The notes below the pieces were generated by a model that was not told the origin of the DNA, made no database searches, and saw only the letters and a program-made list of their open reading frames with translations. Of a stretch of 61,307 nucleotides of DNA, positions 20,122-57,486 are shown piece after piece. Made by a program: the position numbers and the translations under genes. Position 1 is the first letter of the stretch. Every line of letters starts with the position of its first letter. The stretch is from Deltaproteobacteria bacterium. GTDB taxonomy: Bacteria > Bdellovibrionota > Bacteriovoracia > Bacteriovoracales > Bacteriovoracaceae. Location: positions 1 to 61,307 of the forward strand of contig SBGE01000081.1 in assembly GCA_006226755.1 (NCBI GenBank), in the 5' to 3' direction.

Positions 20122-21258
20122 CTAATTAAACCACATCGGTTTGTCTTCTACTTTCCTGATCGATTTGACTTCACCTAGTTTTAGCTCTTCTGTCTTTCGA
20201 AAGAAAATCTCAAGTGATCTCTCCCAAGGAGAGTTTTCTAGTTTTCCATCAAGAAATGAAATCAAGTGAGGGAGTAGCTGTTGACAAAAATCATCACTGG
20301 ATTCCCTTGGAAGCAGTGAAGGCAGATGATCAATTGCCGTAATCTCGAGGAGTTCATCCTCTCTTAGAATACTGACCGGTTTATCCATAGTTGTTCCCTC
20401 TGAATAAATAGGCAAAGGGTTACATGGACCAGTTGGATCACAACTTATATCACTGATGGCCGTGAGGTTTCTCTCTTCCTCATCAATGATTTCATCTGTA
20501 AGCCATGGGGTAACCTTGTCTTTCATCAAGGCCGTATTTATTAAAAGATCAAATTCAAGGATTTCCTTAATGGCCCCTCTACCTTTGGTATCTTTAGATC
20601 CCCATAGAGTGGCGTTGATGTCGAGACTTTCCAAAAGTTTTTGAGCACCAATTCCACAGCGGCCGTTTGCCCCAATGATTAGAACAGATGGTTTTCTTCC
20701 AACTTTATCAAGACGTCGAGACATTTCCTCGGCCATCGTCACACTATTTTCGTAAGGGGTTAGAGGTGCTTCGTCATTAAGACTTTCATTCAATTGTGAA
20801 GCGGCCCACATAGCGACGCCTAGAGCAGCTCCAGTGTATCCCGCCCAAACTCCAAAGGCAGCGATTCTTCTTTTGTTTTCATCAACTAGGTATTCAAGGT
20901 CATAAAGCAGGCCTCCACCTCTCGCAAAACGAGTAAGTGTTTCTTTGCTTCCTACTTGTCCTTTGTAGCAGTGAGCGAAATGGATATGCCTGTGAATCAA
21001 AGGAAAAGAATTGTTTTCCAATTCTTTGAGGCCGATGATAATGGCACTTTCTGGTGCTTGAGTAATCCAAGAATTCATCGGAGCTATAATTGCTCCAACT
21101 TCCTTGTACTCATTTATGGGATAAATCCTGGTAGGTGATTCTTCCACCACCACATCATGGCCAGCATCTAGAATGGCCTTTACTCCTAATGGAGTCAGTG
21201 CCGTTCGTTCTTCGAATGGTTTGGTTTCGTGGCGTAGCCACAGGGTAGATTTCCGCAT
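20122..21258 (-). CDS. saccharopine dehydrogenase (NAD+, L-lysine-forming; Lys1-type)
   Basis: The N-terminus LWLRHETKPFEERTALTP closely parallels fungal Lys1. A Rossmann GANGRCG motif is present. Confidence 0.85.
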   Translation of the reverse strand: MRKSTLWLRHETKPFEERTALTPLGVKAILDAGHDVVVEESPTRIYPINEYKEVGAIIAPMNSWITQAPESAIIIGLKELENNSFPLIHRHIHFAHCYKGQVGSKETLTRFARGGGLLYDLEYLVDENKRRIAAFGVWAGYTGAALGVAMWAASQLNESLNDEAPLTPYENSVTMAEEMSRRLDKVGRKPSVLIIGANGRCGIGAQKLLESLDINATLWGSKDTKGRGAIKEILEFDLLINTALMKDKVTPWLTDEIIDEEERNLTAISDISCDPTGPCNPLPIYSEGTTMDKPVSILREDELLEITAIDHLPSLLPRESSDDFCQQLLPHLISFLDGKLENSPWERSLEIFFRKTEELKLGEVKSIRKVEDKPMWFN

Positions 21259-21794: not shown

Positions 21795-22778
21795 GTGATG
21801 ATCCTATTTCATCCAGAACTTTCTCCCCGTTGGGGCGAATATGGCATATTGATTCCGCTTCGAGATGATCGCAGCAAACGAGTTTATGAACACTTGCGAA
21901 CCCTTGGTAAAAAGGGATTGATCGAGTTGGATAGAAACGGACTCAAGCTTCTGAACAAGTCTGATCTTGAACGTGCTCATAGCTCTGATTTTGTCGAGAA
22001 ATTGTACGGTGATCAATTAGAGTCGGAGATTCTGGAGTGCTTTGAATTAATCGATTCAAAAGGGAAGTATCATCGCTATAACCCGGCCCTGGCCAAAAGG
22101 GACTGGAAAGACTTTTTCCAAAGTATTCTCCATCACGCCTCGGCCAGTAAGTTTTCCATGGAAAAAGCCTTGGAAGACAAAGGTTTCACGTTTTTCTTGG
22201 GCGGAGGAATGCACCACGCTCGTTCAGATAAAGGCAGTGGCTTTTGCCTTATCAATGATATCGTAATCGGGCTTCGCGCCCTACAGGCAGAGAATAAAAT
22301 TAAATCGGCCTGGGTTATTGATACTGATGCTCACAAAGGTGACGGGACTGCCGAAATTACTTGTAAAGATCCAAGTATTAAAACTTTGTCTATTCATATG
22401 AAGAAAGGGTGGCCATTAGATCACCCGGAGCTTAATCATCCCTCTAAGATTCCAAGCGATGTTGATATTGAAATGGATGTTGATGAAGAGGAGTTCTATC
22501 TTGAAAGGTTGAGACAAGGACTCAATCACCTATGGACTCTTTCTCTGGATAAACCGGATTTTGTTGTCGTTAATGCCGGTGTTGATCCTTACGAACTAGA
22601 TGAGCTTCCCAGTACCAAGCTATTGAAACTTTCTAAAGAACAAATGCTTGAGAGAGATCTTTTGGTTTATCGTTTTTTCAAAGAAAGAAACATCCCCCAG
22701 TGTTGGCTTATGTCCGGTGGTTATGGACAATACAGCTGGGAGATTTATTCTCAGTTTCTCGAATCAATTCTAGAGTAG
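21795..22778 (+). CDS. histone-deacetylase-family (arginase/deacetylase superfamily) amidohydrolase
   Basis: GGGMHHARSDKGSGFCLINDIVIG and DTDAHKGDGT motifs are present, with GGAGGA upstream of the start. Confidence 0.85.
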   Translation: MMILFHPELSPRWGEYGILIPLRDDRSKRVYEHLRTLGKKGLIELDRNGLKLLNKSDLERAHSSDFVEKLYGDQLESEILECFELIDSKGKYHRYNPALAKRDWKDFFQSILHHASASKFSMEKALEDKGFTFFLGGGMHHARSDKGSGFCLINDIVIGLRALQAENKIKSAWVIDTDAHKGDGTAEITCKDPSIKTLSIHMKKGWPLDHPELNHPSKIPSDVDIEMDVDEEEFYLERLRQGLNHLWTLSLDKPDFVVVNAGVDPYELDELPSTKLLKLSKEQMLERDLLVYRFFKERNIPQCWLMSGGYGQYSWEIYSQFLESILE

Positions 22779-33557: not shown

Positions 33558-33596
33558 ACTCCATCCTTTCCAAGGGTGGAGTGGTGTTTTATCCTT
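33558..33596 (+). terminator. hairpin terminator after the NADAR gene
   Basis: ACTCCATCC-TTTCCAA-GGGTGGAGT (one G-U pair) followed by a T-rich tail. Confidence 0.5.
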
Positions 33597-33626: not shown

Positions 33627-34631
33627 ATGGGTTTGTTTGATGCTTTTAAAAAGCAGTTTATTGATGTCATTGAATGGACGGAAGAAGAAGACGGAGTTCT
33701 TTCTTATCGCTTCCCAATGATTGACCAAGAGATTCAAAACGGTGGGCAATTAACTGTTCGTGAAAGTCAACTTGCCATGTTTGTGAACGAAGGAGAGATT
33801 GCAGATATCTTCGAACCTGGGCTTCACACTCTTAATACTCAAAACCTTCCGATTCTTACCAATCTCATGCATTGGGATAAGGCGTTTAAATCTCCTTTTA
33901 AGTCGGATGTTTATTTCTTCTCTACTCGTGATCAAATTGATCAAAGATGGGGAACACCAAATCCAATTACCATCAGAGACAAAGACTACGGTCATATCAG
34001 ACTTCGTGCACATGGAACTTTCTCTTATTCCATTAATGATCCAAAAGCTTTTTATAAGCAGATCAGTGGAACCAGAGAGAAGTACACTGTTGAAGAGCTT
34101 GATGGACAATTGATTTCATCAATCCTAACAGGGATGTCGAGCTTCTTCGGAAACAGTGGGATTCCATTTCTTGATATGGCCGCGAATCAAACTGAGTTTT
34201 CCAACAAGCTTAAAGAAGCGTTGACTTCTGAATTCACGAAATATGGATTGGACCTCAAAACTTTTTATGTTCAAAACCTTTCTCTTCCAGAAGAGCTTCA
34301 AGAGTACCTCGACAAGGCATCCAAAATGCGAATGGTTGGAGATCTTGGAAAGTATACTCAATTTGAAACTGCTGACTCCATCAAAACTGCTGCCGGTAAC
34401 GAAGGCGGAGCTGCTGGGATGGGCGCGGGGCTAGGTGCTGGAATTGCCATTGGTAATCAGATGGCCGGTCAAATGTTGGGTGGCGGATCTGGTGGAAACC
34501 AAGCTGCAGCACAGAGTGAAGAAGAAGTTCTCGCAACCATCGAAAAACTTCATGGAATGAAAGAGAAGGGAATCCTTACTGAAGAGGAATTCAACGCAAA
34601 GAAAGCAGAACTTTTAAAAAAATTGACCTGA
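33627..34631 (+). CDS. SPFH/Band-7-like protein (YdjI-type, virion-core-protein-like) with a Gly-rich linker and C-terminal SHOCT domain
   Basis: AAGGAG lies 6 nt before ATG 33627. MGLFDAFKKQFIDVIEW...LTVRESQLAMFVNEGEI is typical of this family. The C-terminal EEVLATIEKLHGMKEKGILTEEEFNAKKAELL is SHOCT-like. Confidence 0.85.
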   Translation: MGLFDAFKKQFIDVIEWTEEEDGVLSYRFPMIDQEIQNGGQLTVRESQLAMFVNEGEIADIFEPGLHTLNTQNLPILTNLMHWDKAFKSPFKSDVYFFSTRDQIDQRWGTPNPITIRDKDYGHIRLRAHGTFSYSINDPKAFYKQISGTREKYTVEELDGQLISSILTGMSSFFGNSGIPFLDMAANQTEFSNKLKEALTSEFTKYGLDLKTFYVQNLSLPEELQEYLDKASKMRMVGDLGKYTQFETADSIKTAAGNEGGAAGMGAGLGAGIAIGNQMAGQMLGGGSGGNQAAAQSEEEVLATIEKLHGMKEKGILTEEEFNAKKAELLKKLT

Positions 34632-34632
34632 T

Positions 34633-35274
34633 ATGACCAAAATCAACTGCCCATCCTGCGGGGGAGAGATACCATTTCGGTCGTCGACTTCGGTCTTTGC
34701 CGTCTGCCCTTATTGTAAATCAACTGTTGTTCGCCATGATCTCGATCTAGAACTGATCGGGAAAATGGCGGATCTCCCTGATGATATGAGTCCCATTCAA
34801 CTCATGATGTCCGGACGTTTTAATAAGAAAACATTTTTTGTCGCTGGTCGGATCATCGTTAAATATGAAGATGGTTTTTGGAATGAATGGTACCTAAATT
34901 TTGATGACGGAAGTTCCGGTTGGCTTGCTGAAGCAGGTGGTGATCTAGCCATCAATTTTCCCGTGGCCAGTGGTCTAAAGATTTCTGATAAATCTTATGT
35001 TCAAACTGGGGCAAAACATCAGCTTGATGGAAAAAACTTTTATGTCACAGATGTTAAGAAAATGGTTTGTGTCGGAAGTGAAGGGGAACTTCCTTTTCGC
35101 GGAATTGAAGGGAGACAGTCTCTCAATGTAGATCTTTCTGATCGTTCTGGTGGATTTGCTTCAATCGAATTCAATGACGACGATGGTGTACAGGCCTATG
35201 TCGGTCAGTATGTTGAATTTAAAGACCTCAAACCGAAAGGCTTTAGAGTTTTTCAGGGATGGGGTAAACCATGA
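34633..35274 (+). CDS. Zn-ribbon + DUF4178 domain protein
   Basis: Starts 1 nt after the upstream stop. It has a CPSC...CPYC ribbon, and FWNEWYLNFDDGSSGWLAEAGG is the DUF4178 core. Confidence 0.75.
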   Translation: MTKINCPSCGGEIPFRSSTSVFAVCPYCKSTVVRHDLDLELIGKMADLPDDMSPIQLMMSGRFNKKTFFVAGRIIVKYEDGFWNEWYLNFDDGSSGWLAEAGGDLAINFPVASGLKISDKSYVQTGAKHQLDGKNFYVTDVKKMVCVGSEGELPFRGIEGRQSLNVDLSDRSGGFASIEFNDDDGVQAYVGQYVEFKDLKPKGFRVFQGWGKP

Positions 35275-36587
35275 GTAATCGAATCAGTAGAAAAGAAAAA
35301 CAGATTCGCCCTGTCGTTAAAAGCTTCAATTGTCCTAATTGTGGAGCCACTTTAAATATTACTGCAGTTGGGCGAACCATATCTGTCGTTTGTAAAAGTT
35401 GTCGAGCCACTTTGGATGCTACTGATCCAAACTTCGCGATATTAGAAAAAAATGCAAAGATGAAAACTGTAACACCTGCAATTCCTGTTGGGAGTCGTGG
35501 AACTCTTGGTGGAAAGATGTGGGAGTGCATTGGATTCATGCAAAGAGGTGATAGCTACGGTTATCGCTGGCATGAATACCTTCTCTACAACCCTTATCAT
35601 GGCTATCGATGGCTTTTTGAGTTTGATGGTCATTGGACTTGGTTTAAAAGATCATACGACTTACCAGATCTCTCTGGAACCGATGTTAAATATAAAGGAA
35701 ATACTTATAAGCTCTTCACCAAAGGAACGTCTGAAGTTTTTTACGTGGAAGGTGAATTTTATTGGAGAGTGAAGGCCGGAGATAAATCCAAAGTAAAGGA
35801 TTTTGTTTCTGCTCCCTATACGATCTCTTTTGAAGCCAGCGAAGGTGAAGAAGTTTGGACACATGGACAATACTTGGAACCTGATCGGATAAAGAAAGCT
35901 TTCAATTTGAAAGACAATTTTTTTCCAGAACCGGTAGGGATTGCTCCAAACCAGCCTTCTCCACATAAATTAGAAGCTAAGACAGCTTTGAAATACTTTT
36001 TCTTTTCTGCAGTTTTCATGATTGTTGTTCATGTCTTTAGAACAGCTACTGCCATCAATAAAGAAGTCTTTCGTTTTAGCGGTGTGAGGACATTGGCACC
36101 AAGATACAGTGATAATAAAACTTTGGATGAGAAAGTTGAGAATACTCCAACATTTCTTATCGAAAAGAAACGATCCAACCTTCAACTCAAGGCCATGGCC
36201 AATGTCAATAATTCATGGATTTGGATAGATCCACTTCTCGTGAATGAAGAAACCGGTAAGGGAATACCTATGCCGGTTGAAGTTTCCTACTATCATGGCT
36301 ACTCCGGTGGTGAGAGTTGGAGCGAGGGTGGACATAATAAATCTAAAATTATTCAAAATGTTCCACCAGGGCGATACTACCTAAGTATCAAAACTCAGAT
36401 TGGTGGCCAAAGCTTAAGAGATGTTAATTACTCATTGATATTGATTCAAGATGTACCTGTACTTTCTAATTTGATCATCTCTTTGATCTTGTTAGGTATT
36501 TTCCCTATTTTCAAGCTTATGAGAAGACAGAGCTTTGAAGTACAGCGCTGGTCTACCAGTGACTACTCACCTTATTCGGAGGACTAA
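35271..36587 (+). CDS. Zn-ribbon + DUF4178 domain membrane protein
   Basis: ATGA overlap with the upstream ORF. It has a CPNC...CKSC ribbon, the YRWHEYLLYNPYHGYRWLFEFDG motif, and two C-terminal TM segments. Confidence 0.75.
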   Translation: MSNRISRKEKQIRPVVKSFNCPNCGATLNITAVGRTISVVCKSCRATLDATDPNFAILEKNAKMKTVTPAIPVGSRGTLGGKMWECIGFMQRGDSYGYRWHEYLLYNPYHGYRWLFEFDGHWTWFKRSYDLPDLSGTDVKYKGNTYKLFTKGTSEVFYVEGEFYWRVKAGDKSKVKDFVSAPYTISFEASEGEEVWTHGQYLEPDRIKKAFNLKDNFFPEPVGIAPNQPSPHKLEAKTALKYFFFSAVFMIVVHVFRTATAINKEVFRFSGVRTLAPRYSDNKTLDEKVENTPTFLIEKKRSNLQLKAMANVNNSWIWIDPLLVNEETGKGIPMPVEVSYYHGYSGGESWSEGGHNKSKIIQNVPPGRYYLSIKTQIGGQSLRDVNYSLILIQDVPVLSNLIISLILLGIFPIFKLMRRQSFEVQRWSTSDYSPYSED

Positions 36588-36719
36588 ATGTACAAGTATA
36601 TTTGCATTGGAATTTGTGCTGTCTATACCTATCTTGCTTTTACTGGGAGAAGTTACTTCAGTCCAAGTCCTACACGCTCATGGGCCAAAAAAGGTGAGCG
36701 GGCCATTTTTCACAAATAA
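36588..36719 (+). CDS. unannotated 43-aa single-TM micro-protein
   Basis: The ATG directly abuts the upstream TAA, and GGAGG (36578-36582) lies 5 nt upstream. It translates to MYKYICIGICAVYTYLAFTGRSYFSPSPTRSWAKKGERAIFHK. It is below the ORF-track length cut-off. Confidence 0.4.
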   Translation: MYKYICIGICAVYTYLAFTGRSYFSPSPTRSWAKKGERAIFHK

Positions 36720-36738
36720 AAACTACGGAGGAAAAAAT

Positions 36739-36957
36739 ATGGAAAACATCATCAACATTCAACATTTTGCTGCCGCTATTATCTACACACTTCTAGGAAC
36801 AGTTGCTTTCGCGATTGCTTTCAAAGTTCTCGACGTTCTTACGCCAAGAGATATGTGGCATGAAATTCTTGAAGAACATAATAATGCACTCGCAATCGTG
36901 ATTGGTGCACTTGCTATTGGCATGAGCATTATTATCGCTGCTGCGATCAAGGGGTAA
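36739..36957 (+). CDS. DUF350 (YjfL-like) small membrane protein
   Basis: ACGGAGG RBS before ATG 36739. It has two TM helices (AAAIIYTLLGTVAFAIAF and ALAIVIGALAIGMSIIIAAAI). I rejected the track's longer 36535 start. Confidence 0.7.
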   Translation: MENIINIQHFAAAIIYTLLGTVAFAIAFKVLDVLTPRDMWHEILEEHNNALAIVIGALAIGMSIIIAAAIKG

Positions 36958-36963
36958 GTCTAA

Positions 36964-38457
36964 GTGGAATTCATCTTACTCTTTTCTGTCGCTGTCATTG
37001 CCACTTGTGGGCTCGTTTACGAGTTGGTAGCAGGAGCATTGGCAAGCTATCTTTTAGGTGATTCCATCACACAATTTTCTCTGATTATAGGGATCTATCT
37101 TTTTTCTATGGGAATTGGTTCGTGGTTTTCAAAATACATCACAAAAAATGTGATGATGAAATTTATTCAAATTGAGTTTATTGTAGGCTTGGTCGGCGGA
37201 CTCTCTGCTACAGTTCTTTTCTTTTCATTCGAGTTTATCAGCCATTTCAGACTTTTACTTTTCTCATTCGTTACCATGACCGGAATATTGGTAGGGCTCG
37301 AAATACCGCTCTTGATGAGAATTTTAAAGGATCGGTATGAGTTTAGTGATTTGGTTTCTAAAGTTTTTACAGTCGATTATATTGGTGCCTTGTTTGCTTC
37401 CATTCTTTTTCCTTTAGTTTTGGCGCCCTATTTAGGACTAGTGAGAACTTCACTGCTCTTTGGAATTTTTAATGTTGCTGTTGGCTTGTGGACATTGAGT
37501 CTGATTAAAGAAGAGATGCCATGGCGTAATGCTCTGAGAGGGACGGGGATTGGAGCTGCTCTTGTCCTTGTTATCACTTTTGCATTCTCAAACAAGCTGA
37601 CTCAATTTGCGGAGACTTTGAACTATAAAGATCAGATTGTTTTTACTGATAAATCACCTTATCAAAAAATTGTTTTGACTCAAGGCGATCATGATCTGAG
37701 ACTCTTTCTGAATGGAAATTTGCAATTCAGTAGTGTCGATGAATATCGTTATCATGAAGCACTCGTTCATCCCGCTATGGCCTTACAAAATAATCCTAAA
37801 AAGATTTTAGTCCTGGGTGGAGGAGATGGATTGGCCGTTCGAGAGATACTTAAGTTTCCAAGTGTTGAGAGCGTGACACTCGTTGACCTAGATCCTTTGA
37901 TGACAAAAATTTTTTCTACCAATGATAGATTGGTTAAGCTCAATGAGCGGGCATTAAAGAATGAGAAGGTAAAAGTAGTCAATGCAGATGCTTTTGTATG
38001 GCTTCGAGAAACTAAGGACGTTTTTGATGTTGTCATCATCGATTTTCCCGATCCAAGCAACTACTCTCTTGGGAAACTTTATACTACTCGCTTTTTTACA
38101 CTTCTTGGCAAGGTAATGAAAGATGAGACGAAAGCAGTTATTCAATCGACATCTCCGCTCTATGCCAGAAAATCTTTCTGGTGTGTCGGTAACACTTTGA
38201 AACATGTCGGATTCAAAATAAATCCATTTCACGTCTATGTCCCTTCATTTGGAGAGTGGGGGTATTTTCTTTTTTCTAAGAGTCATATGGATCTCGATTT
38301 TAAACCACTTCAAAATGCCAAGTTTCTCACTAAAGCTGTGTGGGACTCGATGTTTGTTTTCCCTCCTGATATGGAATACACCGAAACTGAAGTGAATCGT
38401 CTTAATAACCAAATTCTTGTGCGATATTTTGAAGATGAGTGGTCACGATATAACTGA
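36964..38457 (+). CDS. membrane-fused spermidine/spermine-synthase-like aminopropyltransferase
   Basis: The N-terminal ~200 aa are polytopic. The C-terminal domain carries ILVLGGGDGLAVREIL, VDLDP and VIIDFPDPS motifs. Confidence 0.85.
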   Translation: MEFILLFSVAVIATCGLVYELVAGALASYLLGDSITQFSLIIGIYLFSMGIGSWFSKYITKNVMMKFIQIEFIVGLVGGLSATVLFFSFEFISHFRLLLFSFVTMTGILVGLEIPLLMRILKDRYEFSDLVSKVFTVDYIGALFASILFPLVLAPYLGLVRTSLLFGIFNVAVGLWTLSLIKEEMPWRNALRGTGIGAALVLVITFAFSNKLTQFAETLNYKDQIVFTDKSPYQKIVLTQGDHDLRLFLNGNLQFSSVDEYRYHEALVHPAMALQNNPKKILVLGGGDGLAVREILKFPSVESVTLVDLDPLMTKIFSTNDRLVKLNERALKNEKVKVVNADAFVWLRETKDVFDVVIIDFPDPSNYSLGKLYTTRFFTLLGKVMKDETKAVIQSTSPLYARKSFWCVGNTLKHVGFKINPFHVYVPSFGEWGYFLFSKSHMDLDFKPLQNAKFLTKAVWDSMFVFPPDMEYTETEVNRLNNQILVRYFEDEWSRYN

Positions 38458-40075
38458 TGAAAATCTAGAAAGTCTCTCTCTTGAGACTGATCGGCGTAGC
38501 TTTATCAAGCTTGCCTTGGGAGCTCTTGCTCTCGGAGCAGCTTCCTATACTGGAATAAGATCATTTCTTAAACCATCTCAAATTCCCGGCCTGGTTGAAG
38601 GAGCTTCTTTTAAAAGAGGTCACACTCTTTTAACAGGTGGTTTTAAGATACCAGGAAAAAAGATGTCCTCTAAAGTTGTGATTATAGGCGCAGGGATGGC
38701 CGGACTCCATGCTGGTTGGTGGCTAAAGAGAAATGGTTTTGAAGACTTTGTTATTTTAGAACTAGAAGATGAAGTTGGTGGTAAATCCCGTTATAAAACC
38801 AATAAATCCTCCGAGTCTCCTCTTGGAGCTCATTATCTTCCTCTTCCTAATAAAGAGGCGTTTCATACAATAGAGCTTCTTAAAGAAATGGGAGTGTTAA
38901 CTCAAGAGTCAGCTAATGGAAATGTCTTTAAGGAAGATTATTTAAGTTTTGCTCCTCGTGAGCGTTTGTTTATCCACGGACGCTGGCAAGAAGGTATCGT
39001 TCCCAATAATGGAATAGGAACTGCGCAAAAAAAACAAATAGAAAAATTCTTTTCCATTATGGAAAAATATAAATGGTCCAAAGGTAAAGATGGAAAGTTT
39101 GCTTTTTCTATTCCAATGGATCTTTCCAGTCGAGATTCTAAATTTCTTTCACTAGATAAGATAACGATGAAAGATTGGATGAAGGCCGAAGGGCTCTCTA
39201 ATGAATATCTCGATTGGTATGTGAATTATTGTACTCTGGATGACTTCGGAACTCCTTTTGATCAGACTTCTGCATGGGCCGGTATTCATTATTTCGCTGG
39301 AAGACGAGGCAAAAATAAAGATTCTGATGAAGATATGGTTTTAACATGGCCTGAAGGGAATGGACGTATCGTCAAGCATTTAAGATCCAAGCTCGAAGGT
39401 CACATACAAACTGGTAAAATAGTTAAGAAAATTAAATCATCAAAAAATCAGGTGTTCGTCTTAGTCGATGATCAAACCACTAAAACAGTAGAGGAGTGGA
39501 GCGCAGAGAGAATTATTTATTCAGCTCCTCGTTTTATTGCAAAATATGTGATTGGAGAGGAAGTTGTTCCTTCGAATCTTGATTATTCACCATGGATGGT
39601 AAGTAATATTGTCGTAAAAAAACCTGGTGATGATCCAAAATTTTACTGGGATAACGTCAACTATCACGGACGTTCTATCGGTTATATCAATGCCAATCAT
39701 ATGAATCTCAAATCTCATGAAGATGAATATGTGTTGACCATGTACTGGCCCCTCGTTTCAGATAGTCCTTTGACTGAAAGAAGAAAAGCGCTAAGTCGAA
39801 CGCATGCTGATTGGTCAAAAATGGTGATGGAAGAAATGGAAACCATGCATCCCGGGATCAGCGAAGATGTTGTTAAGCTCGATATTTGGCTGTGGGGACA
39901 TGCCATGGTTCGGCCAATTCCTGGTTATATTTGGGGTGGAGAAAGAGAAGAGAAGCTCAAGAGTAAAGATTCGAAAATCCTTTTTGCTCATTCTGATATG
40001 TCGGGAATGAGTTTATGTGAAGAAGCTGGTTATTGGGGTGTTAAAGCTGCTGAGGAAATACTCAAAAAGTCATGA
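38435..40075 (+). CDS. Tat-signal FAD-dependent amine-oxidase-like oxidoreductase
   Basis: Twin-arginine signal DRRSFIKLALGALALGAAS and a dinucleotide fold VVIIGAGMAGLHAGWWL. The start is either 38435 or 38417, and both overlap the upstream gene. Confidence 0.8.
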   Translation: MSGHDITDENLESLSLETDRRSFIKLALGALALGAASYTGIRSFLKPSQIPGLVEGASFKRGHTLLTGGFKIPGKKMSSKVVIIGAGMAGLHAGWWLKRNGFEDFVILELEDEVGGKSRYKTNKSSESPLGAHYLPLPNKEAFHTIELLKEMGVLTQESANGNVFKEDYLSFAPRERLFIHGRWQEGIVPNNGIGTAQKKQIEKFFSIMEKYKWSKGKDGKFAFSIPMDLSSRDSKFLSLDKITMKDWMKAEGLSNEYLDWYVNYCTLDDFGTPFDQTSAWAGIHYFAGRRGKNKDSDEDMVLTWPEGNGRIVKHLRSKLEGHIQTGKIVKKIKSSKNQVFVLVDDQTTKTVEEWSAERIIYSAPRFIAKYVIGEEVVPSNLDYSPWMVSNIVVKKPGDDPKFYWDNVNYHGRSIGYINANHMNLKSHEDEYVLTMYWPLVSDSPLTERRKALSRTHADWSKMVMEEMETMHPGISEDVVKLDIWLWGHAMVRPIPGYIWGGEREEKLKSKDSKILFAHSDMSGMSLCEEAGYWGVKAAEEILKKS

Positions 40076-41142
40076 GAAGTTCATCCAATTTATTTATTTC
40101 AAATCCCGTGGTTGAATCCCTGTTTATTTTATTTCCACCTTTTCTTTCTGTGATTTTAGCATTTGTGTTCTATAAGTTTACAAACTATAGGGAAATGACA
40201 CCTCTTTTTTGGCTCTTCATTGTTTTATTGGTGGATGTCGCTCATGTCTGGACGACAATCTTTCGTACCTATTTGAACAAATCTTTTTTGAAGCAAAGAA
40301 GTGATCTTCTTCTTTACGTTCCTGTTGGCTGTTTTATCATTGGCGTTCTTTTATACACTGCTGGCAAAATGGTTTTTTGGCGAGTAATGGCCTATGTCGC
40401 CCTTTTTCATTTTATTCGACAGCAGTATGGTGTTTTCATGTTGTATGCTAGAAAGACTGAAATGAGTGTCTGGCAACAACGAATTGGCAAACTTTGTATT
40501 TATTTATCAACCATAGCTCCTGTGGTTCATTGGCATTTCAGTTTACCTAAGAAATTTAGCTGGTTTATGGAGGGTGACTTTTTTGTTTTGCCCAATAATC
40601 AAATTATTCCATTGATCGTCTGGGGGATCACAGCCATTTCTTTTTTGTTGTATCTCTACATGGAGTTCAAGTCTTGCGTTTTTAATTGGGCGAAGCATTT
40701 GGTTCTTTTTGGGACTCTTCTTTCTTGGGGTGTCGGAATTGTCGTCTTGAATAATGATATCAGTTTTACACTGACCAATGTCCTGACTCATGGGATTCCA
40801 TATTTTGCCCTTGTTTGGATGTCGAGTTGTCAGGGTAATGATCAAATAAAGGATAAGACATTTGGAATCATGCAGGTTTTTACCAAGTCTCGTTTGGTAG
40901 GTGTGTTCTTTATGATAGCTCTAGTTGTTTTTTTGGGTTTTTTCGAAGAGCTCTTTTGGGATGTTTTTGTCTGGCATGAGCATCAGTCAGTTTTTTCTTG
41001 GATTTATAATGGTGTCGTTCATTCTGACCATGCCATGCTGGCCCTTCTCGTTCCTCTTTTTAGTGTCCCTCAGGTCACCCATTATGTCCTCGATGGTTTT
41101 ATATGGAAGGGGAAGCAGAGCTTTGATGGGCTTCGATTTTAA
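40072..41142 (+). CDS. polytopic membrane protein, unknown function
   Basis: ATGA overlap with the oxidase gene. About 9 hydrophobic segments and several conserved-looking His/Trp residues. Confidence 0.65.
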   Translation: MRSSSNLFISNPVVESLFILFPPFLSVILAFVFYKFTNYREMTPLFWLFIVLLVDVAHVWTTIFRTYLNKSFLKQRSDLLLYVPVGCFIIGVLLYTAGKMVFWRVMAYVALFHFIRQQYGVFMLYARKTEMSVWQQRIGKLCIYLSTIAPVVHWHFSLPKKFSWFMEGDFFVLPNNQIIPLIVWGITAISFLLYLYMEFKSCVFNWAKHLVLFGTLLSWGVGIVVLNNDISFTLTNVLTHGIPYFALVWMSSCQGNDQIKDKTFGIMQVFTKSRLVGVFFMIALVVFLGFFEELFWDVFVWHEHQSVFSWIYNGVVHSDHAMLALLVPLFSVPQVTHYVLDGFIWKGKQSFDGLRF

Positions 41143-43013
41143 GCACTCGGAAAAGATAAACTGATTTTGGTCCCACTATCTTCGTACTTGTCTTTTGATT
41201 TACTTTCAATTCTAATATTACCATTCATCGCCTTAACAAATGTCTTCATAATTAAAATTCCGTATCCTGTACCTTTTTCTCCAAGAGTGCCAAGTCTTGA
41301 TTTGATAGCACCTCGATTTTCTAACATTTCGAGATCTGATTCATTCATTCCTTGCCCATAGTCTTGAATGGTCAGAACTGTGTTTGCTCCTTCAATCTCA
41401 AAAGAAATTGTAATTTTTGAGTTTGGATCACTGAATTTAACGGCATTAGATAGAATATTTGAAATCACTTGATTAGTCAGGAGATTCTTTTCAGCTTTGA
41501 TCTTAGGTAATTTGTCAGGACATTCGACAGCGATATTCTTTTCGTCCAAGCGTTTTTGATAAATGAAAAGACTATCATCAATTACTTCTTTTAAATAAAC
41601 GGTTTCAATTCTTCCACTAATATCTTCAATAGAAATGGATTCTTGATCTTTAACTGTTTCAATAATGTTTAATATCATATCAACGGCTCGATTGATCTTC
41701 TCTGATGTGATCTCAATTTGTTCAGCCGTCATTCCATTTTTCTTGAGTCGCTTTGAATAATTTAAGATAAGGCTGAGAGGATTGACGATGTCGTGGAGAA
41801 GAACTCTGGCCAAAGTTTGATATTTTTCTTTCCCAACCGCATCTAGTTGAGCCCTTTCTTTTTCTTTATCTAGAATCGTGATTTGGTAGGCTAAACCAAG
41901 TGAAATGACCAACATTTCAATCATATTTCCCCAGAGAAGCGAAGTCTGAGTAATCATATTATGTGGAAAAACTTTATAATACATTCCAAACCACACACCT
42001 GCACCTATAAAGATTCCAGTCCAAGAGGCCATGTAAAAATAAGCGAGAGGTTCTTTGTCTAATGAGGATTTTATTCCCATAGAGAGCATCGAAAGTAGTG
42101 TTAAACCGATGAATAGATCTACAGTATTTCCCATTCCTGCGCCAACAATAGGCTTTAAAAACGGAAACAGAACAAAATGCAAAAGCATGCCAGTGCAGAC
42201 AAAATAATAAAACTTTTTGAATTTTGGATAACGAATATTCCACTTGAGAAAGCGATTGGTGAAAACTAGCGCTAAGAATCCTGCTCCAGATGATGTCATC
42301 AATAAATAGTCTGAGGGATTAAAGGGTAAAAAAGAGAATATGTGGTCTAAGGCTCCTTGCATGTTAAGAGCGAGTAACCCCATTGATCCGATGAAAGCAG
42401 AGTAGTAAAGATAAACCTTCTTACGAGTATAGAGACCTAAAAAGAGATTATAGATAAGTAGAGCAAGAAGGGCTCCACTATAGATGTGAACAATTTTTTC
42501 AACGATAAGATCTCTTTTCTCTAGCTCATCTTTTGATGTAAGCAATACTCTCGTATCAAAGCGATGATGGCTATGTCTTCTTATGTAAAAATGCTGACTT
42601 GAGTTTGGTGGAATTTCTACTTCCATTGCTGGGTAATGTGACTGGATGGCCCTCTCTTCCCAATTGATGGCACTTCCTGTTCTCGCTAATTCATTTCCAT
42701 CTTGATCATAAAAGAGAACTTCTCCTGCCATTGTATGCTGAAGTTTGAGAATCTTTTTAACTGGAGTGGAGGAAGTGTTATCTAGTTTTAACTTGAGCCA
42801 GATGAAATCATTTGTGTAGTTATATTTAATTTCTTCTGAATCTACTTCTTTAAACATTTTTTCAGAAGGTCTGGTTTCTTGACCAATGGCCATTAAAACT
42901 TTGGCTGTTATATTCTTAGATTTTTTTGTTATAGCAGATACATCAATTCCAAAAGCTTCTGGACTCATCAAGATAAATGCTTGAATCGACAAAATAAAAA
43001 TCATTTTGATCAT
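41139..43013 (-). CDS. sensor histidine kinase with 7TMR-DISM-type periplasmic and 7TM input modules
   Basis: Signal peptide, an extracellular domain and seven TMs. H-box LLHDIVNPLS, N-box SNILSNAVKFS, G-boxes QDYGQGM and GTGYGI. No response regulator is adjacent. Confidence 0.85.
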   Translation of the reverse strand: MIKMIFILSIQAFILMSPEAFGIDVSAITKKSKNITAKVLMAIGQETRPSEKMFKEVDSEEIKYNYTNDFIWLKLKLDNTSSTPVKKILKLQHTMAGEVLFYDQDGNELARTGSAINWEERAIQSHYPAMEVEIPPNSSQHFYIRRHSHHRFDTRVLLTSKDELEKRDLIVEKIVHIYSGALLALLIYNLFLGLYTRKKVYLYYSAFIGSMGLLALNMQGALDHIFSFLPFNPSDYLLMTSSGAGFLALVFTNRFLKWNIRYPKFKKFYYFVCTGMLLHFVLFPFLKPIVGAGMGNTVDLFIGLTLLSMLSMGIKSSLDKEPLAYFYMASWTGIFIGAGVWFGMYYKVFPHNMITQTSLLWGNMIEMLVISLGLAYQITILDKEKERAQLDAVGKEKYQTLARVLLHDIVNPLSLILNYSKRLKKNGMTAEQIEITSEKINRAVDMILNIIETVKDQESISIEDISGRIETVYLKEVIDDSLFIYQKRLDEKNIAVECPDKLPKIKAEKNLLTNQVISNILSNAVKFSDPNSKITISFEIEGANTVLTIQDYGQGMNESDLEMLENRGAIKSRLGTLGEKGTGYGILIMKTFVKAMNGNIRIESKSKDKYEDSGTKISLSFPSA

Positions 43014-43489: not shown

Positions 43490-43581
43490 ATCAGGACCTC
43501 AGATAGAATTATTTCATCTTTGGTTCAAAATGAGTAGTGCAAATAAGCCGAGCGTTGCACTCGGATAAAAATGGAGCATAC

Positions 43582-44070
43582 ATGAAAAAATTTACAGCAA
43601 TTCTTATCTCTACCTTTTTCTTGGCCTCTACTGCAATGGCCGCACCTAAAAAAGGAGTTTCTGTTTCGGTTGAGCTTTCTCCAGCAGGAAGTTTTGAAAT
43701 AACTGGAAAGGTTAAAGGATCAGTTAAGAAAACGGGTGCAGGATATGAGGCCAAGAAACTTTCTTTTGCTGTTAAAAAACTAAAGACGGGAATGGATTTA
43801 AGAGACAAACATACCAAAGAGAAACTTGAGTATAAAAAGCATTCGGATGTGGTTGTTACAGATGCCAAAGGAAGTGGCGGCAAAGGATCGGCGATGATTT
43901 CTGTCCGTGGTGTGAGCAAAAAGATTTCATTTGATTTCAAAGAGTCCGGAAAATACATCGTCGCTAAATTTAAACTAAACCTGAAAGATTTTGGATTCTC
44001 TGGGATTAATTATATGGGTGTTGGTGTGAAAGATTCTGTTGAAGTCTCAGCAGTAGTTCCAGTTAAATAA
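43582..44070 (+). CDS. YceI-like periplasmic (polyisoprenoid-binding family) protein
   Basis: I moved the start to MKKFTAILISTFFLASTAMA. The TGMDLRDKH motif and beta-rich repeats are typical of YceI. Confidence 0.75.
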   Translation: MKKFTAILISTFFLASTAMAAPKKGVSVSVELSPAGSFEITGKVKGSVKKTGAGYEAKKLSFAVKKLKTGMDLRDKHTKEKLEYKKHSDVVVTDAKGSGGKGSAMISVRGVSKKISFDFKESGKYIVAKFKLNLKDFGFSGINYMGVGVKDSVEVSAVVPVK

Positions 44071-46265: not shown

Positions 46266-46628
46266 CTAGAGATTTGTTATCCAATCGTTTAGGTAATTAA
46301 TTTCAGTCTGACCGAGTTGGCTTCCTCCTTGTGGCATGTTCCCACCGTAATTGATGAGTTTGATAATTAGGGGAGAGCCGGCAAAATCATTGGCCTTAAC
46401 CAATCCTGAGTTAACCCAGGCCTGACTGGTTGTATAGTTCGAATAAATATTGTGGTATCCGGTGTGACAACTGATGCAATTTGTTTGGATAACATTGAAT
46501 GCCTTTCCAAAGGGAGTCGTGTTGTCAATTCCGGTGTTTCCATAACGTTGGCGATCAAAGGAGTTGCTGTTGTAGTCCTGACCACATGATGAAAGAAGAA
46601 AAAGAACTATCAAGGAGATGTATTTCAT
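46266..46628 (-). CDS. monoheme c-type cytochrome lipoprotein
   Basis: Lipobox FLLSSC, CISCH encoded at 46464-46478, and a distal GGNMPQGG that could supply the Met ligand. Confidence 0.75.
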   Translation of the reverse strand: MKYISLIVLFLLSSCGQDYNSNSFDRQRYGNTGIDNTTPFGKAFNVIQTNCISCHTGYHNIYSNYTTSQAWVNSGLVKANDFAGSPLIIKLINYGGNMPQGGSQLGQTEINYLNDWITNL

Positions 46629-47119
46629 TTGGGTAAAATCTCCTGTTTTAAAACTTTTATTGTGAGTTCAATATTGTCTTCAACACTCACTCCCATAAAG
46701 CTGGCCGGCTGAAGTTTAAACTGACTAGGGATCAGAGTGAATTTAGCCAAGTAATGAGTTTTGTCACTGGTAACCTGAAAAGAAAGTTTTTTTGAAACTC
46801 CATTAATAGTCAGATTACCAGATCCTTTGAAGTTTTTGATGATGACATCTTTGATAAAAATTCGAGGGTGTTTATTGGCGTTCAGGTATTTATGAAGGTG
46901 TTCATCGCGAAGTTGAATACCGGTTTCAAGCGAAGTCGTTCGAACACTGAGTTTTTTGGAGTTAATCGTGCCTTTGTCTTTAAGAAGGACAAAGTCTCCA
47001 TACAATTTATCACTATTGATCTCAAAGCTTCCAACAGGTAGAAGTCGACCGAGGATGTGAACCTCGTGGGCCATGGACCCAAATGAGATTAGGAAAAAAA
47101 GTATTAATTTCAAATGCAT
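46625..47119 (-). CDS. YceI-like periplasmic protein
   Basis: Signal peptide, an ETGIQLRDEH motif, and a 4-nt overlap with the cytochrome gene. Confidence 0.7.
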   Translation of the reverse strand: MHLKLILFFLISFGSMAHEVHILGRLLPVGSFEINSDKLYGDFVLLKDKGTINSKKLSVRTTSLETGIQLRDEHLHKYLNANKHPRIFIKDVIIKNFKGSGNLTINGVSKKLSFQVTSDKTHYLAKFTLIPSQFKLQPASFMGVSVEDNIELTIKVLKQEILPK

Positions 47120-56794: not shown

Positions 56795-57486
56795 AGTGAC
56801 CTCGAGTTTCTTTCTACAGCTTTGGTTATTGTTTTAAGTGCTTGAGTGGTTCCTGCACTCATATTTTCAAATACATTTTCTTCAACAAAATCTCTGACGA
56901 GAAACCAATGTGAAGTTTTGGATTCATAGCGATATTCTACTTTCGTTTTCTTGTCTGAAAGTTTGATTAAACGGTAAGTGCCTTTTATAAAATCAAAAGC
57001 TGAGCTCACGCGAGTGGGGTCTTTCAAAACCTTGTTGATTATTTTTGGATTGACCATTTCATGAGAGATGATCATTTCATTGTCAGAAGTCTTTTTCTTG
57101 ATGACATCATAGTGAGCAAAAGAGCCGCGGTTATAAACGTTTCTCCATACCAAATAGGAAGGAGTGAGGTCATCCGTTTTGAGAATATCTTTATTGAATT
57201 CTTGAATTTTGACTGCTTCAACTAGATTCTTGTTGAAGTAGAGACACTTGTCTTCCCACTTCATCATCTTGCGTTTAGAGCGATACTCGTTGTTGCATTT
57301 CTCATCGAAATTTTCGATTCCCTTGGCCACTGATTCAAGATCGGCTTCATAAGTCATTTCTACTTCTGCAGTAAAAACTTTGGTTTCTCCCTCCCAATAA
57401 GAAGAGAGGCGGACATCTCCAATGGTCCTCTTTGTTTGGGCAAAACAATTGAAGGAGATCATTGTAAAAAGAACAAAGATTTTCAT
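56791..57486 (-). CDS. secreted protein, unknown function (possibly a lipid-binding fold)
   Basis: Signal peptide MKIFVLFTMISFNCFAQ and 4-nt overlaps with both neighbours. No motif I can name. Confidence 0.6.
   Translation of the reverse strand: MKIFVLFTMISFNCFAQTKRTIGDVRLSSYWEGETKVFTAEVEMTYEADLESVAKGIENFDEKCNNEYRSKRKMMKWEDKCLYFNKNLVEAVKIQEFNKDILKTDDLTPSYLVWRNVYNRGSFAHYDVIKKKTSDNEMIISHEMVNPKIINKVLKDPTRVSSAFDFIKGTYRLIKLSDKKTKVEYRYESKTSHWFLVRDFVEENVFENMSAGTTQALKTITKAVERNSRSL

Follow-up and report, generated by a model that had tools for sequence, protein, structure and literature searches.

A spermidine-synthase-like enzyme that carries seven transmembrane (TM) helices and is encoded together with SPFH, DUF4178 and DUF350 proteins raises the question of what is modified, and on which side of the membrane. 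We addressed this question for an operon in a 61,307-nucleotide stretch of DNA (the window).

Layout of the operon and its genes

Positions 33627-41142 hold eight co-directional, tightly packed open reading frames on the + strand (g1 to g8), with junctions of +1, -4, 0, +19, +6, -23 and -4 nt in this order, ATGA overlaps between g2 and g3 (35271) and between g7 and g8 (40072), and SD-like sequences ahead of g1, g4 and g5. The packed frames, the junction range and both overlaps had been described in an earlier note on this DNA and were all recovered; the same is true for the domains it had named (SPFH, SHOCT, DUF4178, DUF350, Spermine_synth and Amino_oxidase), which were found by Pfam and NCBIfam profile searches. 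A hairpin with an 11-bp stem (5 GC pairs) and a T-run lies upstream (33558..33582, + strand, tail GGTGTTTTAT); it is terminator-like and would end the transcript of the upstream NADAR gene and set the 5' boundary of the operon.

The eight genes form a single operon and belong to an envelope system that is modular and widespread. This system has as its core a membrane protein with a DUF4178 domain, a micropeptide that ends in lysine, a DUF350 protein and a 7TM-fused aminopropyltransferase of the dcSAM type, with a Tat-exported amine-oxidase-like flavoprotein as usual companion. Three modules are optional: an AdoMet decarboxylase (AdoMetDC), the pair of an SPFH-SHOCT protein and a short DUF4178 protein, and g8 with its 10 helices; the locus in the window is the SPFH-led version, with g8 and without AdoMetDC. 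Occurrence of the individual genes was counted in 83 loci found through g8.

The first gene, g1 (33627..34631, + strand; AAGGAG 3 nt 5' of the ATG), encodes an SPFH protein (Band_7_1, 2.7e-76) that contains a hydrophobic, Gly-rich stretch, carries SHOCT at its C-terminus (6.8e-8) and is predicted to be an inner-leaflet scaffold. In 14 of the 83 loci a homologue of g1 comes first in the cluster, 13 of these being among 80 loci retrieved through g8. The next two genes encode Zn-ribbon DUF4178 proteins: g2 (34633..35274, + strand; DUF4178 2.4e-10; 23/83 loci) is short, has the motifs CPSCGG...CPYCKS and no TM helix and is predicted to be cytoplasmic, while g3 (35271..36587, + strand; DUF4178 4e-22; 73/83 loci) has an N-terminal CxxC...CxxC and two TM peaks (about residues 242-253 and 404-413) on either side of a domain of ~140 amino acids that is predicted to be periplasmic. 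The micropeptide gene g4 is described below. g5 (36739..36957, + strand; 71/83 loci) encodes a small YjfL-family membrane protein of 72 amino acids (DUF350, 6.3e-11) with two TM helices; its start is most likely the ATG at 36739, with GGAGGA 7 nt 5' of it.

The synthase gene g6 (36964..38457, + strand; 77/83 loci) encodes a 7TM domain (residues 1-207; seven helices in an AF2 model with pLDDT 85) followed by an aminopropyltransferase domain (about residues 220-497), with matches to NF002956 (661 bits, cut-off 472) and Spermine_synth (1.1e-39). The motifs GGGDG, VDLDP and DFPDPS are all intact, GGGDG, D308/D310 and D360/D363 are invariant among homologues, and the TM domain has invariant acidic residues of its own (E20, D33, E71, E113 and D138). 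The nearest solved structures to the catalytic domain are aminopropyltransferases, thermospermine synthase included. g7 (38435..40075, + strand, most likely starting at the ATG at 38435) encodes an amine-oxidase-superfamily flavoprotein (Amino_oxidase 5.4e-11; NAD_binding_8 1.7e-8) with the twin-arginine motif DRRSFIK and is predicted to be periplasmic; of 76 homologues, 51 have the RRx-hydrophobic motif, and an R[KQNS]xF variant takes its place in most others. Profile comparison relates g7 to MAO, L-amino-acid oxidase, polyamine oxidase, SpdH and LSD1, mainly through the FAD-binding part, outside of which the assignment is weak. The C-terminal half has a weak match to the pyrrole-forming oxidase PigB (5.8e-11, far below the NCBIfam cut-off).

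The last gene, g8 (40072..41142, + strand), encodes a membrane protein with 10 helices in the AF2 model (pLDDT 85.8, pTM 0.84), one more than the roughly nine of the earlier note. The family has 4690 homologues with many invariant positions (H58, R65, H113, RQQYG116-120, H155, D169, H240, E292-E293, H337 and D341); searches found no Pfam or NCBIfam family, no sequence match in the PDB and no fold match in the PDB (best E 0.29, TM about 0.2). g8 is an accessory partner almost confined to loci adjoining g7, which is found in 78 of the 83 g8 loci.

The K+R content of the g6 loops is 2.2, 4.1 and 3.2 for loops 2-3, 4-5 and 6-7 and 0.2, 0.07 and 0.95 for the others. With seven TM helices and this strong positive-inside bias, the catalytic domain is predicted to lie outside the cytoplasm, on the side of g7, and this contradicts the earlier placement of synthase and oxidase on opposite sides of the membrane. 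Three independent lines converge on the periplasm: the helices and K+R bias of g6, the charge of the micropeptide (N-terminal side more positive than the tail) and the Tat motif of g7. For the Bacteriovoracaceae the peptide orientation is ambiguous, because there the tail itself is rich in K/R.

Conservation of the cluster and its lysine-tailed micropeptide

The gene order is kept across at least eight phyla: Bacteriovorax stolpii (L084) has the same seven-gene order, the order is also present in dozens of genomes from other phyla, and cluster variants are found in Novosphingobium, Gemmatirosa, Tritonibacter, Ralstonia and Burkholderia. The arrangement is far beyond chance, and the conservation on which the earlier note had staked its reading is seen in many phyla. 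A g1 homologue also heads the clusters of B. stolpii and Novosphingobium, and lies inside, not at the head of, those of Gemmatirosa, Ralstonia and Burkholderia; g8 is not in the Novosphingobium, Gemmatirosa, Ralstonia and Burkholderia clusters. AdoMetDC is clustered in 61 of the 83 loci; there is no AdoMetDC gene within the 61 kb window, and none in the clusters of the Bdellovibrionota relatives L001, L004, L029 and L082 and of B. stolpii. Neither PspA nor AdoMet_dc had a Pfam match in 50 other ORFs of the window with 110 or more amino acids, and phmmer searches with E. coli PspA and YjfJ found no match in the window, which bears out the earlier claim that a PspA gene is missing here.

The micropeptide gene g4 (36588..36719, + strand) starts with an ATG immediately after the g3 stop, with GGAGGA 3 nt 5', and encodes 43 amino acids, MYKYICIGICAVYTYLAFTGRSYFSPSPTRSWAKKGERAIFHK, with one N-terminal TM helix and a tail that ends in His-Lys. 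It matched no Pfam or NCBIfam family, and the only annotation is 'hypothetical protein'. All 80 related loci that have both a DUF4178 gene and a synthase gene encode a one-helix, Lys-terminated peptide adjoining the DUF4178 gene, and 77 of these 80 peptides end in His-Lys. Among these, an HK-ending peptide is encoded 5' of SpeE in 74 of 75 loci (the remaining one ends in GGK), and the peptides of five further plasmid loci end in SHK, HGK, RVK, GHK and SHK; the background of HK-ending frames is 0.4%. Only the last two residues are conserved among homologues; helix and tail vary and have low-complexity sequences. For g4, synonymous and nonsynonymous codon differences stand at 18:5 and 17:10, nucleotide differences at the three codon positions are 6/0/20, and the His codons are CAT (42) and CAC (31). 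The codon differences and the His codon usage indicate selection at the protein level, and on these sequence comparisons the micro-ORF is a genuine conserved gene and the most conserved oddity of the system. The tails of the Ralstonia and Burkholderia peptides are Gly/Ser-rich, 25-45 residues long and look like tethers. No lysine-tailed peptide was seen in a variant from Ensifer that consists of AdoMetDC, a large DUF350 protein, an unknown protein and SpeE.

Related systems

Operons of this kind are already known from comparative genomics, and the PspA-less SPFH variant is not new: PspA-free band-7/SHOCT polyamine operons were described by Ravi, Anantharaman, Aravind and Gennaro (mSystems 2024, PMC11237479), with a band-7 + 2TM + SHOCT protein replacing the PspA dyad and AdoMet decarboxylase and polyamine oxidase alongside. 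The same work describes operons of CesT/Tir-PspA with 7TM-spermine-synthase, DUF350 and DUF4178, and raises both 'aminopropylation of other substrates' and monitoring of polyamine concentration; all of this is prediction. The operon in the window shares with these the band-7 protein with Gly-rich membrane segment and SHOCT, DUF4178, DUF350, the aminopropyltransferase-7TM fusion, the 'polyamine oxidase', the missing PspA dyad and the proposed membrane-linked polyamine/aminopropyl chemistry, but lacks the AdoMet decarboxylase that they list. The searched text of Ravi et al. mentions neither a lysine-terminated micropeptide nor the g8 family and gives no topology for the synthase. The novelty claimed in the earlier note is weakened by this work; our literature search found no experimental work on PspA-free band-7/SHOCT polyamine operons.

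g6 has the same architecture as NHMT/AN4663, a histidine methyltransferase of fungi that acts on N-termini (Batth et al., Nat Commun 2023, PMC10349129): a 7-TM domain (~215 aa in NHMT) comes first and a Rossmann domain of the spermidine-synthase-like type second. NHMT requires its TM domain and modifies the His that becomes terminal in secreted proteins once their signal peptide has been cleaved, which places the reaction on the non-cytosolic side. However, the TM domains of the two proteins have no detectable homology (hmmsearch about 0 bits), and hhalign reaches 21% probability for the Rossmann part only. The acidic residue of GxG(D/E)G is the determinant of dcSAM use (PMC10349129); NHMT has Ile at this position and takes a methyl group from SAM, whereas g6, with GGGDG retained, should use dcSAM as donor and transfer aminopropyl.

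The E. coli operons yjfIJKLMC and tolC-ygiBC are likewise DUF350-containing envelope operons, and the parallel with yjfIJKLMC drawn earlier agrees with RefSeq (YjfJ, PspA family; YjfL, DUF350). YjfC and YgiC are reported to be peptide-spermidine ligases (Pederick et al., Biochemistry 2023; PMC11762307), which join a polyamine-like chain to a peptide end. They are ATP-grasp enzymes that link ready-made spermidine to a carboxylate by amide ligation, in contrast to the aminopropyl transfer to an amine proposed for g6. The DUF1190 lipoproteins encoded nearby resemble g4 in having an anchor, a flexible G/S-rich tail and a fixed end (Gly-Gly). SpeE, AdoMetDC and amine oxidase are all missing from the yjf operon, which does encode a PspA homologue (YjfJ); the operon in the window has no ATP-grasp gene. 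Polyamine-like chains are also built on lysine epsilon-amines in eukaryotes, in hypusine (eIF5A; deoxyhypusine synthase with spermidine as aminobutyl donor) and in the long-chain polyamines of silaffins, but no bacterial membrane micropeptide is involved there.

Possible substrates of the 7TM enzyme

Our preferred reading, put forward tentatively, is that the 7TM enzyme aminopropylates the terminal lysine of the micropeptide and that the flavoprotein oxidises or removes this modification. The peptide would insert N-in/C-out and present its flexible tail with the terminal His-Lys at the periplasmic face, where the catalytic domain of g6 would transfer aminopropyl from dcSAM to the lysine epsilon-amine. 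In chemical terms, the Lys side chain corresponds to the aminobutyl end of putrescine. The reaction would yield a spermidine-like cation tethered to the membrane. Supplying or positioning the cationic donor might fall to the acid-rich 7TM domain. The new secondary amine could then be oxidised by g7, either with loss of the mark, as in the reactions of LSD1 and polyamine oxidases, or with formation of an aldehyde. On the cytoplasmic side, SPFH-SHOCT and both DUF4178 proteins would have an organising or regulatory role in the complex; that g8 is a membrane redox or transport partner of g7 is conjecture.

Lysine aminopropylation is supported by the conservation of the cluster, the Lys-terminated peptide and the protein-level selection on it, the topology of g6, g4 and g7, the intact GGGDG and the linkage to AdoMetDC. 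By analogy, NHMT, YjfC/YgiC and the suggestion of Ravi et al. may count as precedents, as may the lysine-directed LSD1 within the superfamily of g7. Several points speak against it: the need for dcSAM export, the AdoMetDC-free clusters of Bdellovibrionota, the Ensifer variant without peptide, the ambiguous peptide orientation in Bacteriovoracaceae, the weak g7 assignment past the FAD-binding part, and the fact that a conserved end does not make a small membrane protein a substrate, as such proteins can also be structural subunits. Concerning the first point, we know of no export of dcSAM in bacteria, which a periplasmic dcSAM-dependent reaction would require.

Less probably, and in line with the model of the earlier note, the product of the enzyme at the membrane is a free tri- or tetra-amine, which the flavoprotein breaks down, so that local polyamine levels are tuned and the envelope is stabilised, with SPFH, DUF4178, DUF350 and micropeptide in structural or regulatory roles. 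The catalytic domain, above the NCBIfam cut-off as polyamine aminopropyltransferase and closest to thermospermine and broad-specificity synthases, is consistent with this, as are the g7 matches to polyamine oxidases and the periplasmic spermidine dehydrogenase SpdH and the proposal of polyamine-concentration monitoring (PMC11237479); it does not account for a dedicated peptide that invariably ends in Lys, nor for the predicted extracytoplasmic catalytic domain. Of the output suggested in the earlier note, a membrane-associated polyamine/aminopropyl module is reasonable, and a polyamine-lipid product has no specific support.

We consider it just as doubtful that the micropeptide is a structural or regulatory subunit of a 7TM-SpeE/DUF350 complex, comparable to KdpF, CydX or AcrZ, and that the aminopropyl group goes to some other molecule of the envelope (the amine of a lipid head group, of peptidoglycan or of LPS, or a protein in the periplasm). 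Single-helix micro-proteins often serve as subunits, the peptide gene always adjoins genes of membrane components, and the acid-rich 7TM domain could bind lipid or another cation; yet conservation confined to the last two residues fits a modification site and would be unusual in a packing subunit, and the tails in Ralstonia and Burkholderia are tether-like. Improbable is a RiPP-like pathway, in which the C-terminal His-Lys of a precursor is aminopropylated, oxidised and cleaved off as a small metabolite or cofactor that can diffuse, by analogy with mycofactocin or PQQ: a variable peptide body with an invariant C-terminal dipeptide, the adjoining transferase and flavin oxidase and the weak PigB match would fit, but no conserved protease or peptidase was found in the cluster, a TM-anchored precursor is atypical for RiPPs, and the company of SPFH, DUF4178 and DUF350 indicates a function that resides in the membrane.

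The micro-ORF merits more than the footnote-like treatment it was given earlier. If lysine aminopropylation is true, an overlooked peptide of 43 residues may be the substrate of a spermidine-synthase-like enzyme.

Operon layout and conservation of gene order

Eight ORFs (g1 to g8) lie head to tail at 33627-41142 on the forward strand of the window, with junctions of, in order, +1, -4, 0, +19, +6, -23 and -4 nt; both -4 overlaps are ATGA. ORF coordinates, junctions and the two ATGA overlaps bear out the tight co-directional packing claimed in an earlier note on this DNA, and profile searches with Pfam and NCBIfam recovered every domain that was named there. The SPFH protein g1 has a Band_7_1 (2.7e-76) and a SHOCT domain (6.8e-8) with a Gly-rich hydrophobic stretch in between, the short and the long Zn-ribbon proteins g2 and g3 have DUF4178 (2.4e-10 and 4e-22, respectively) and g5 is a DUF350 protein (6.3e-11; all Pfam): DUF350 and DUF4178 genes are thus found together in the operon with Pfam scores above the gathering score. 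Neither the 43-residue micropeptide g4 nor the membrane protein g8 matched any Pfam or NCBIfam model. The closest relatives are Bacteriovoracaceae.

Between the NADAR gene and the operon lies a terminator-like hairpin (33558-33582), which closes off that upstream gene, and AAGGAG or GGAGGA motifs are present upstream of g1, g4 and g5. A scan for promoter-like sites did no better than chance (15 sites versus 19±4.4 in shuffled sequence). At the other end, a histidine kinase gene (41139-43013, reverse strand; 7TMR-DISMED2, 7TMR-DISM_7TM and HATPase_c) is convergent with the operon and overlaps the stop of g8 by 4 nt, leaving no room for a terminator; the kinase gene does not adjoin the operon in two relatives, a Bdellovibrionota locus (L001) and Bacteriovorax stolpii (L084). 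Just downstream of the operon, two YceI-like genes (43537-44070, forward; 46625-47119, reverse) flank a block of genes with no Pfam match, and the same YceI genes are present in L001.

A PspA gene is absent from the window, as the earlier note had stated: PF04012 (PspA/IM30) has no match among 58 window proteins, the Pfam models for PspA and AdoMet_dc have none in the 50 additional window ORFs that reach 110 aa or more, and phmmer searches with E. coli PspA and YjfJ (E<=1) found nothing in the window or in 91 related loci (L001-L089, L092, L093).

To assess gene order, 80 loci from different species were fetched from the GTDB genome set via g8 (at least 586 matches), and the six-frame ORFs of 83 loci were searched with the window proteins. 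The flavoprotein g7 was found in 78 of the 83 loci and the synthase g6 in 77, followed by the long DUF4178 protein (73), DUF350 (71), AdoMet decarboxylase (61), the short DUF4178 protein (23) and the SPFH protein (14); missing components are in most cases explained by contig ends, and the frequency of g8 itself is biased because the loci were retrieved through it. Two layouts dominate among these g8-retrieved loci. Bacteroidota have AdoMet decarboxylase - DUF4178 - DUF350 - SpeE - oxidase - g8 (for example Chitinophaga filiformis, by Pfam labels), while Bdellovibrionota, Melainabacteria, Thiobacillus and Gallionellales have SPFH - DUF4178 - DUF4178 - DUF350 - SpeE - oxidase - g8, and the order in B. 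stolpii is identical to that of the window. In the SPFH-led layout the AdoMet decarboxylase gene often directly follows g8, but not in Bdellovibrionota. A profile built from 60 cluster AdoMet decarboxylases had no match at E<=10 anywhere in the 61 kb of the window, and there was no AdoMet_dc Pfam match either: unlike 61 of the 83 related loci, the window and its Bdellovibrionota relatives have no clustered AdoMet decarboxylase.

Clusters without g8 came from plasmid or chromid records located via g6 or g3. Novosphingobium p1 has SPFH - DUF4178 - DUF4178 - 48-aa ORF - DUF350 - SpeE - FAD oxidoreductase - speD, and g8 is also absent from the clusters of Gemmatirosa, Tritonibacter (which lacks the oxidase too) and Burkholderia cenocepacia. 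In Ralstonia solanacearum the g8-less cluster is split, with DUF350 - SPFH - DUF4178 - 61-aa ORF - speD in one place and SpeE - oxidase about 10 kb away. Thus, g8 is an accessory component that hardly ever occurs apart from the oxidase. The system is split or divergent in pathogens, namely on the megaplasmid of the plant pathogen R. solanacearum (L092, L085) and in the human pathogen B. cenocepacia (L093). Conservation of the neighbourhood had been proposed in the earlier note as one of the tests on which its reading could fail; gene order is strongly conserved, with variants in the plasmid and chromid records.

Further genes of the window are listed here for completeness. A histone-deacetylase-family protein (21795-22778, forward; the family includes acetylpolyamine amidohydrolases) and an AlaDh_PNT_N-domain protein (20122-21258, reverse), both about 11-13 kb upstream of the operon, might relate to polyamine metabolism. 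A ceramidase-family membrane protein is encoded near a PLP-dependent decarboxylase in a co-directional gene run (56027-56794 and 57483-58961, both reverse), with a 231-aa ORF without Pfam match between them; Bacteriovorax is known for sphingolipids. A radical-SAM protein (16229-17251, reverse) is similar to spore photoproduct lyase (3e-24 for SPL); the lineage is a non-sporulating one.

Predicted topology of the synthase and the flavoprotein

The synthase g6 matches NF002956/PRK03612 over residues 2-496 with 661 bits (cut-off 472; NCBIfam) and Spermine_synth with 1.1e-39 (Pfam). GGGDG and DFPDP, the latter with the D-x-x-D-P catalytic pair, do not vary among 36 homologues that share 58-92% identity; the acidic residue of GxG(D/E)G selects dcSAM (PMC10349129), whose source is AdoMet decarboxylase. 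The nearest solved structures to the catalytic domain are aminopropyltransferases, including thermospermine synthase; the transmembrane part is covered by no solved structure. In an AF2 model (pLDDT 85), seven transmembrane helices (2-207) and a short helix precede the catalytic domain. Five acidic residues of the transmembrane domain are invariant (E20, D33, E71, E113, D138) and would suit a cationic ligand.

The loops between these helices differ in charge: over 75 homologues, the mean number of K+R is 0.2, 0.07 and 0.95 in loops 1-2, 3-4 and 5-6, and 2.2, 4.1 and 3.2 in loops 2-3, 4-5 and 6-7. The positive-inside rule therefore predicts a cytoplasmic N-terminus, cytoplasmic loops 2-3, 4-5 and 6-7, and a catalytic domain on the outside. 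Micropeptides of the g4 family have 3.5 positive charges in the stretch before their helix, which is 14 residues long on average, with 4.0 K+R and 3.1 D+E in the 30 residues of the tail; this distribution favours an N-in/C-out orientation, although the tail of the Bacteriovoracaceae peptides is basic too.

The N-terminus of g7 has a twin-arginine motif (S/T-R-R-x-F-L-K type; DRRSFIK) and a hydrophobic region, TDRRSFIKLALGALALGAAS, and Tat export is predicted. The motif is retained in 51 of 76 homologues, most others having R[KQNS]xF variants, and in Bacteroidota a lipobox-like Cys often follows it. The Amino_oxidase match (PF01593) has 42.9 bits against a cut-off of 19.8 (5.4e-11), and G85, G87 and G90 of the FAD-binding GxGxxG are invariant. 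Searched against the PDB, the g7 profile does not discriminate between MAO, L-amino-acid oxidase, fatty-acid isomerase, the periplasmic spermidine dehydrogenase SpdH, PAO and LSD1; these matches are confident over the FAD-binding region only and g7 is assigned at superfamily level. The earlier description of g7 as a twin-arginine flavin amine-oxidase-like enzyme thus stands, but the profile does not single out a polyamine as its substrate.

Taken together, three independent predictions, for g6, g4 and g7, put all three on one face of the membrane, the periplasmic one: the transferase domain, the lysine tail of the peptide, and the flavoprotein. This predicted arrangement does not support the earlier proposal that synthase and oxidase act on opposite sides.

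For g8 there are 4690 database relatives; its ten helices carry invariant His, Arg, Gln, Asp and Glu residues. By sequence, g8 had no PDB match at E<=10. A nucleotide-sugar transporter or UbiA-like fold was considered and rejected, as the best Foldseek match in the PDB (E 0.29, TM about 0.2) is not meaningful; a heme-binding or transporter role is conjecture.

A micropeptide family with a terminal lysine

When small ORFs were listed for each locus, a positional homologue of g4 was found nearly everywhere between the DUF4178 gene and the synthase gene. With phmmer alone, the micro-ORF was found in three Bacteriovoracaceae loci only; the family emerged from position and C-terminal motif combined, and public annotation has these ORFs, where called at all, as 'hypothetical protein'. 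The peptides are 43-95 residues long and consist of a short basic N-terminus, one hydrophobic helix, frequently a T/S-G-W/R-x-F motif, a variable low-complexity tail and an end that stays the same. In 75 loci the sequence reaches 700 nt or more 5' of the synthase: 73 of these contain a frame of 30 aa or longer that closes with His-Lys-stop, a further one (L040) has a His-Lys peptide located by hand, and the last, from a planctomycete, has a peptide ending in ...HHHQGGK. Frames with a His-Lys end have a background frequency of 0.4% in this DNA, a figure that counts the true cases as well. The peptides of five plasmid-derived loci end in ...GPSHK, ...RFRHGK, ...NSNRVK, ...FSGGHK and ...SYGSHK, those of R. 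solanacearum and B. cenocepacia having very Gly/Ser-rich tails. In total, the terminal lysine is present in 80/80 loci and His-Lys in 77/80, in a survey that left out PspA-linked versions (Shewanella type), the Mycobacterium tuberculosis Rv2597-2601 type and two Alteromonas plasmid matches. The Ensifer variant (L087) has no convincing peptide.

When g4 of the window is compared with two relatives, synonymous to nonsynonymous codon differences come to 18:5 and 17:10; by codon position, the nucleotide differences are 6/0/20. Judged by these sequence comparisons, selection on g4 acts at the protein level. A nucleotide-level cause of the His-Lys end, such as a ribosome binding site or a regulatory element, was rejected: the penultimate His is encoded by CAT in 42 cases and by CAC in 31, all three stop codons are used, and the SD sequence of g5 lies further downstream.

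Plasmid p2 of Tritonibacter mobilis (L088) carries the sole variant found without the flavoprotein, and its peptide (...NSNRVK) has kept the lysine and lost the histidine. This hints, from one or possibly two records, that the penultimate His may matter for the oxidase step.

Known systems, possible mechanism and significance

Ravi, Anantharaman, Aravind and Gennaro (mSystems 2024, PMC11237479) described CesT/Tir-PspA operons with a 7TM-fused spermine/spermidine-synthase-like domain, DUF350, a lipoprotein and DUF4178, and also PspA operons with an ATP-grasp ligase (E. coli yjf type). With their PspA-free band-7/SHOCT polyamine operon, the window shares band-7 and SHOCT, DUF350, DUF4178, the 7TM synthase-like enzyme and an oxidase (in the window at superfamily level), but it lacks the AdoMet decarboxylase. 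The 'PspA-less' operon of the earlier note therefore belongs to a class that comparative genomics had recognised before, and the interpretation given there, a membrane-integrity module for local synthesis or turnover of a polyamine or polyamine-lipid, is partly supported and partly anticipated. Ravi et al. mention neither a small protein nor a lysine; theirs is the only paper on DUF4178 in the searchable literature, where we found no experimental study of such operons, in agreement with the earlier note. By the same literature, three things are new: the Lys-terminated micropeptide, the g8 family and, as a prediction, the extracytoplasmic position of the transferase domain.

Two other systems are relevant. 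The fungal NHMT/AN4663, ER-resident and dependent on its transmembrane domain, has the same architecture as g6, seven transmembrane helices and a spermidine-synthase-like domain. Its target is the N-terminal His of secreted LPMOs, which it methylates once the signal peptide has been cleaved off and not before (PMC10349129). At the GxGxG position, where g6 has Asp (GGGDG), NHMT has a non-acidic residue, and its methyl donor is SAM. Homology between the two was rejected (blastp E 0.17, hmmsearch about 0 bits, hhalign alignment of the Rossmann part only with 21% probability; the NHMT query was rebuilt from an OCR copy of the supplement with 13 repaired blocks), and, as no homology is detectable in the transmembrane part, NHMT is an analogue and not a relative of g6.

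The second system comprises the E. coli ATP-grasp enzymes YjfC and YgiC, from the DUF350/PspA-type operon to which the earlier note referred; they carry the RefSeq product name peptide-spermidine ligase, and their physiological substrate is given as unknown in PMC11762307. These systems differ from the window in having an ATP-grasp ligase: no ATP-grasp ligase of the glutathionylspermidine-synthetase family was matched by Pfam in the operon or in other window proteins. By analogy, two operon families with DUF350 and PspA/SPFH scaffolds may both place a polyamine-like chain on the end of a polypeptide. Directly upstream of the E. coli ligase genes, yjfM (L091:7388-8026) and ygiB (L094:1745-2416) encode DUF1190 lipoproteins with a G/S/R-rich tail closed by Gly-Gly (...ARGHWGG, ...SRSMGG); given the formal parallel to His-Lys peptides with anchor and flexible tail, YjfM and YgiB may be the natural substrates of the ligases.

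Putrescine and the lysine side chain have a terminal aminobutyl amine in common. The 7TM enzyme g6 could aminopropylate the terminal lysine of the tethered g4 peptide, which would become a membrane-anchored spermidine-like cation; g7 would then oxidise the new secondary amine and either erase the mark or turn it into an aldehyde. On the inner side, the SPFH-SHOCT and DUF4178 proteins would serve to organise the complex. The two experimentally grounded precedents, NHMT and YjfC/YgiC, make this mechanism less exotic. That the lysine of g4 is the aminopropyl acceptor is quite possible, if short of probable. Its weak points are the need for dcSAM outside the cytoplasm, the absence of a clustered AdoMet decarboxylase from the window and other Bdellovibrionota, and the peptide-less Ensifer variant. 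That the enzymes instead serve free polyamines we consider unlikely, and we are just as sceptical that the conserved micropeptide is a subunit, with another molecule accepting the aminopropyl group. A RiPP-like product released from the peptide is very improbable. The full form of the lysine-acceptor reading, in which a 7TM spermidine-synthase homologue on the extracytoplasmic side aminopropylates the C-terminal lysine of a dedicated, membrane-anchored micropeptide of many phyla and an amine-oxidase-like flavoprotein reverses or processes the mark, is offered tentatively.

Orphan AdoMet decarboxylase/spermidine-synthase-like genes are found in R. solanacearum and B. cenocepacia and also in M. 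tuberculosis. They are common in bacteria, and the question of their substrate has stood since 2019, when Li et al. (Biochem J, as cited in PMC11237479) put forward a 'polyamine-independent role' for AdoMet decarboxylase gene clusters. A Lys-terminated micropeptide encoded within the cluster is a concrete substrate candidate, and there are culturable, genetically tractable species in which to test it. Should the peptide idea fail, there is still a well-conserved operon, so far described by prediction only. If it is true, the missing non-polyamine substrate of the orphan clusters would be identified, and dcSAM export across the inner membrane would be implied. A further use of dcSAM, on the outer side of that membrane, would be added. 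The modification would be a new post-translational one, a 'tethered polyamine' based on a ribosomal peptide and made by the first protein-directed aminopropyltransferase, and four 'unknown' families (DUF4178, DUF350, the His-Lys peptide and g8) would gain a function in the envelope-stress context common to PspA and SPFH systems.
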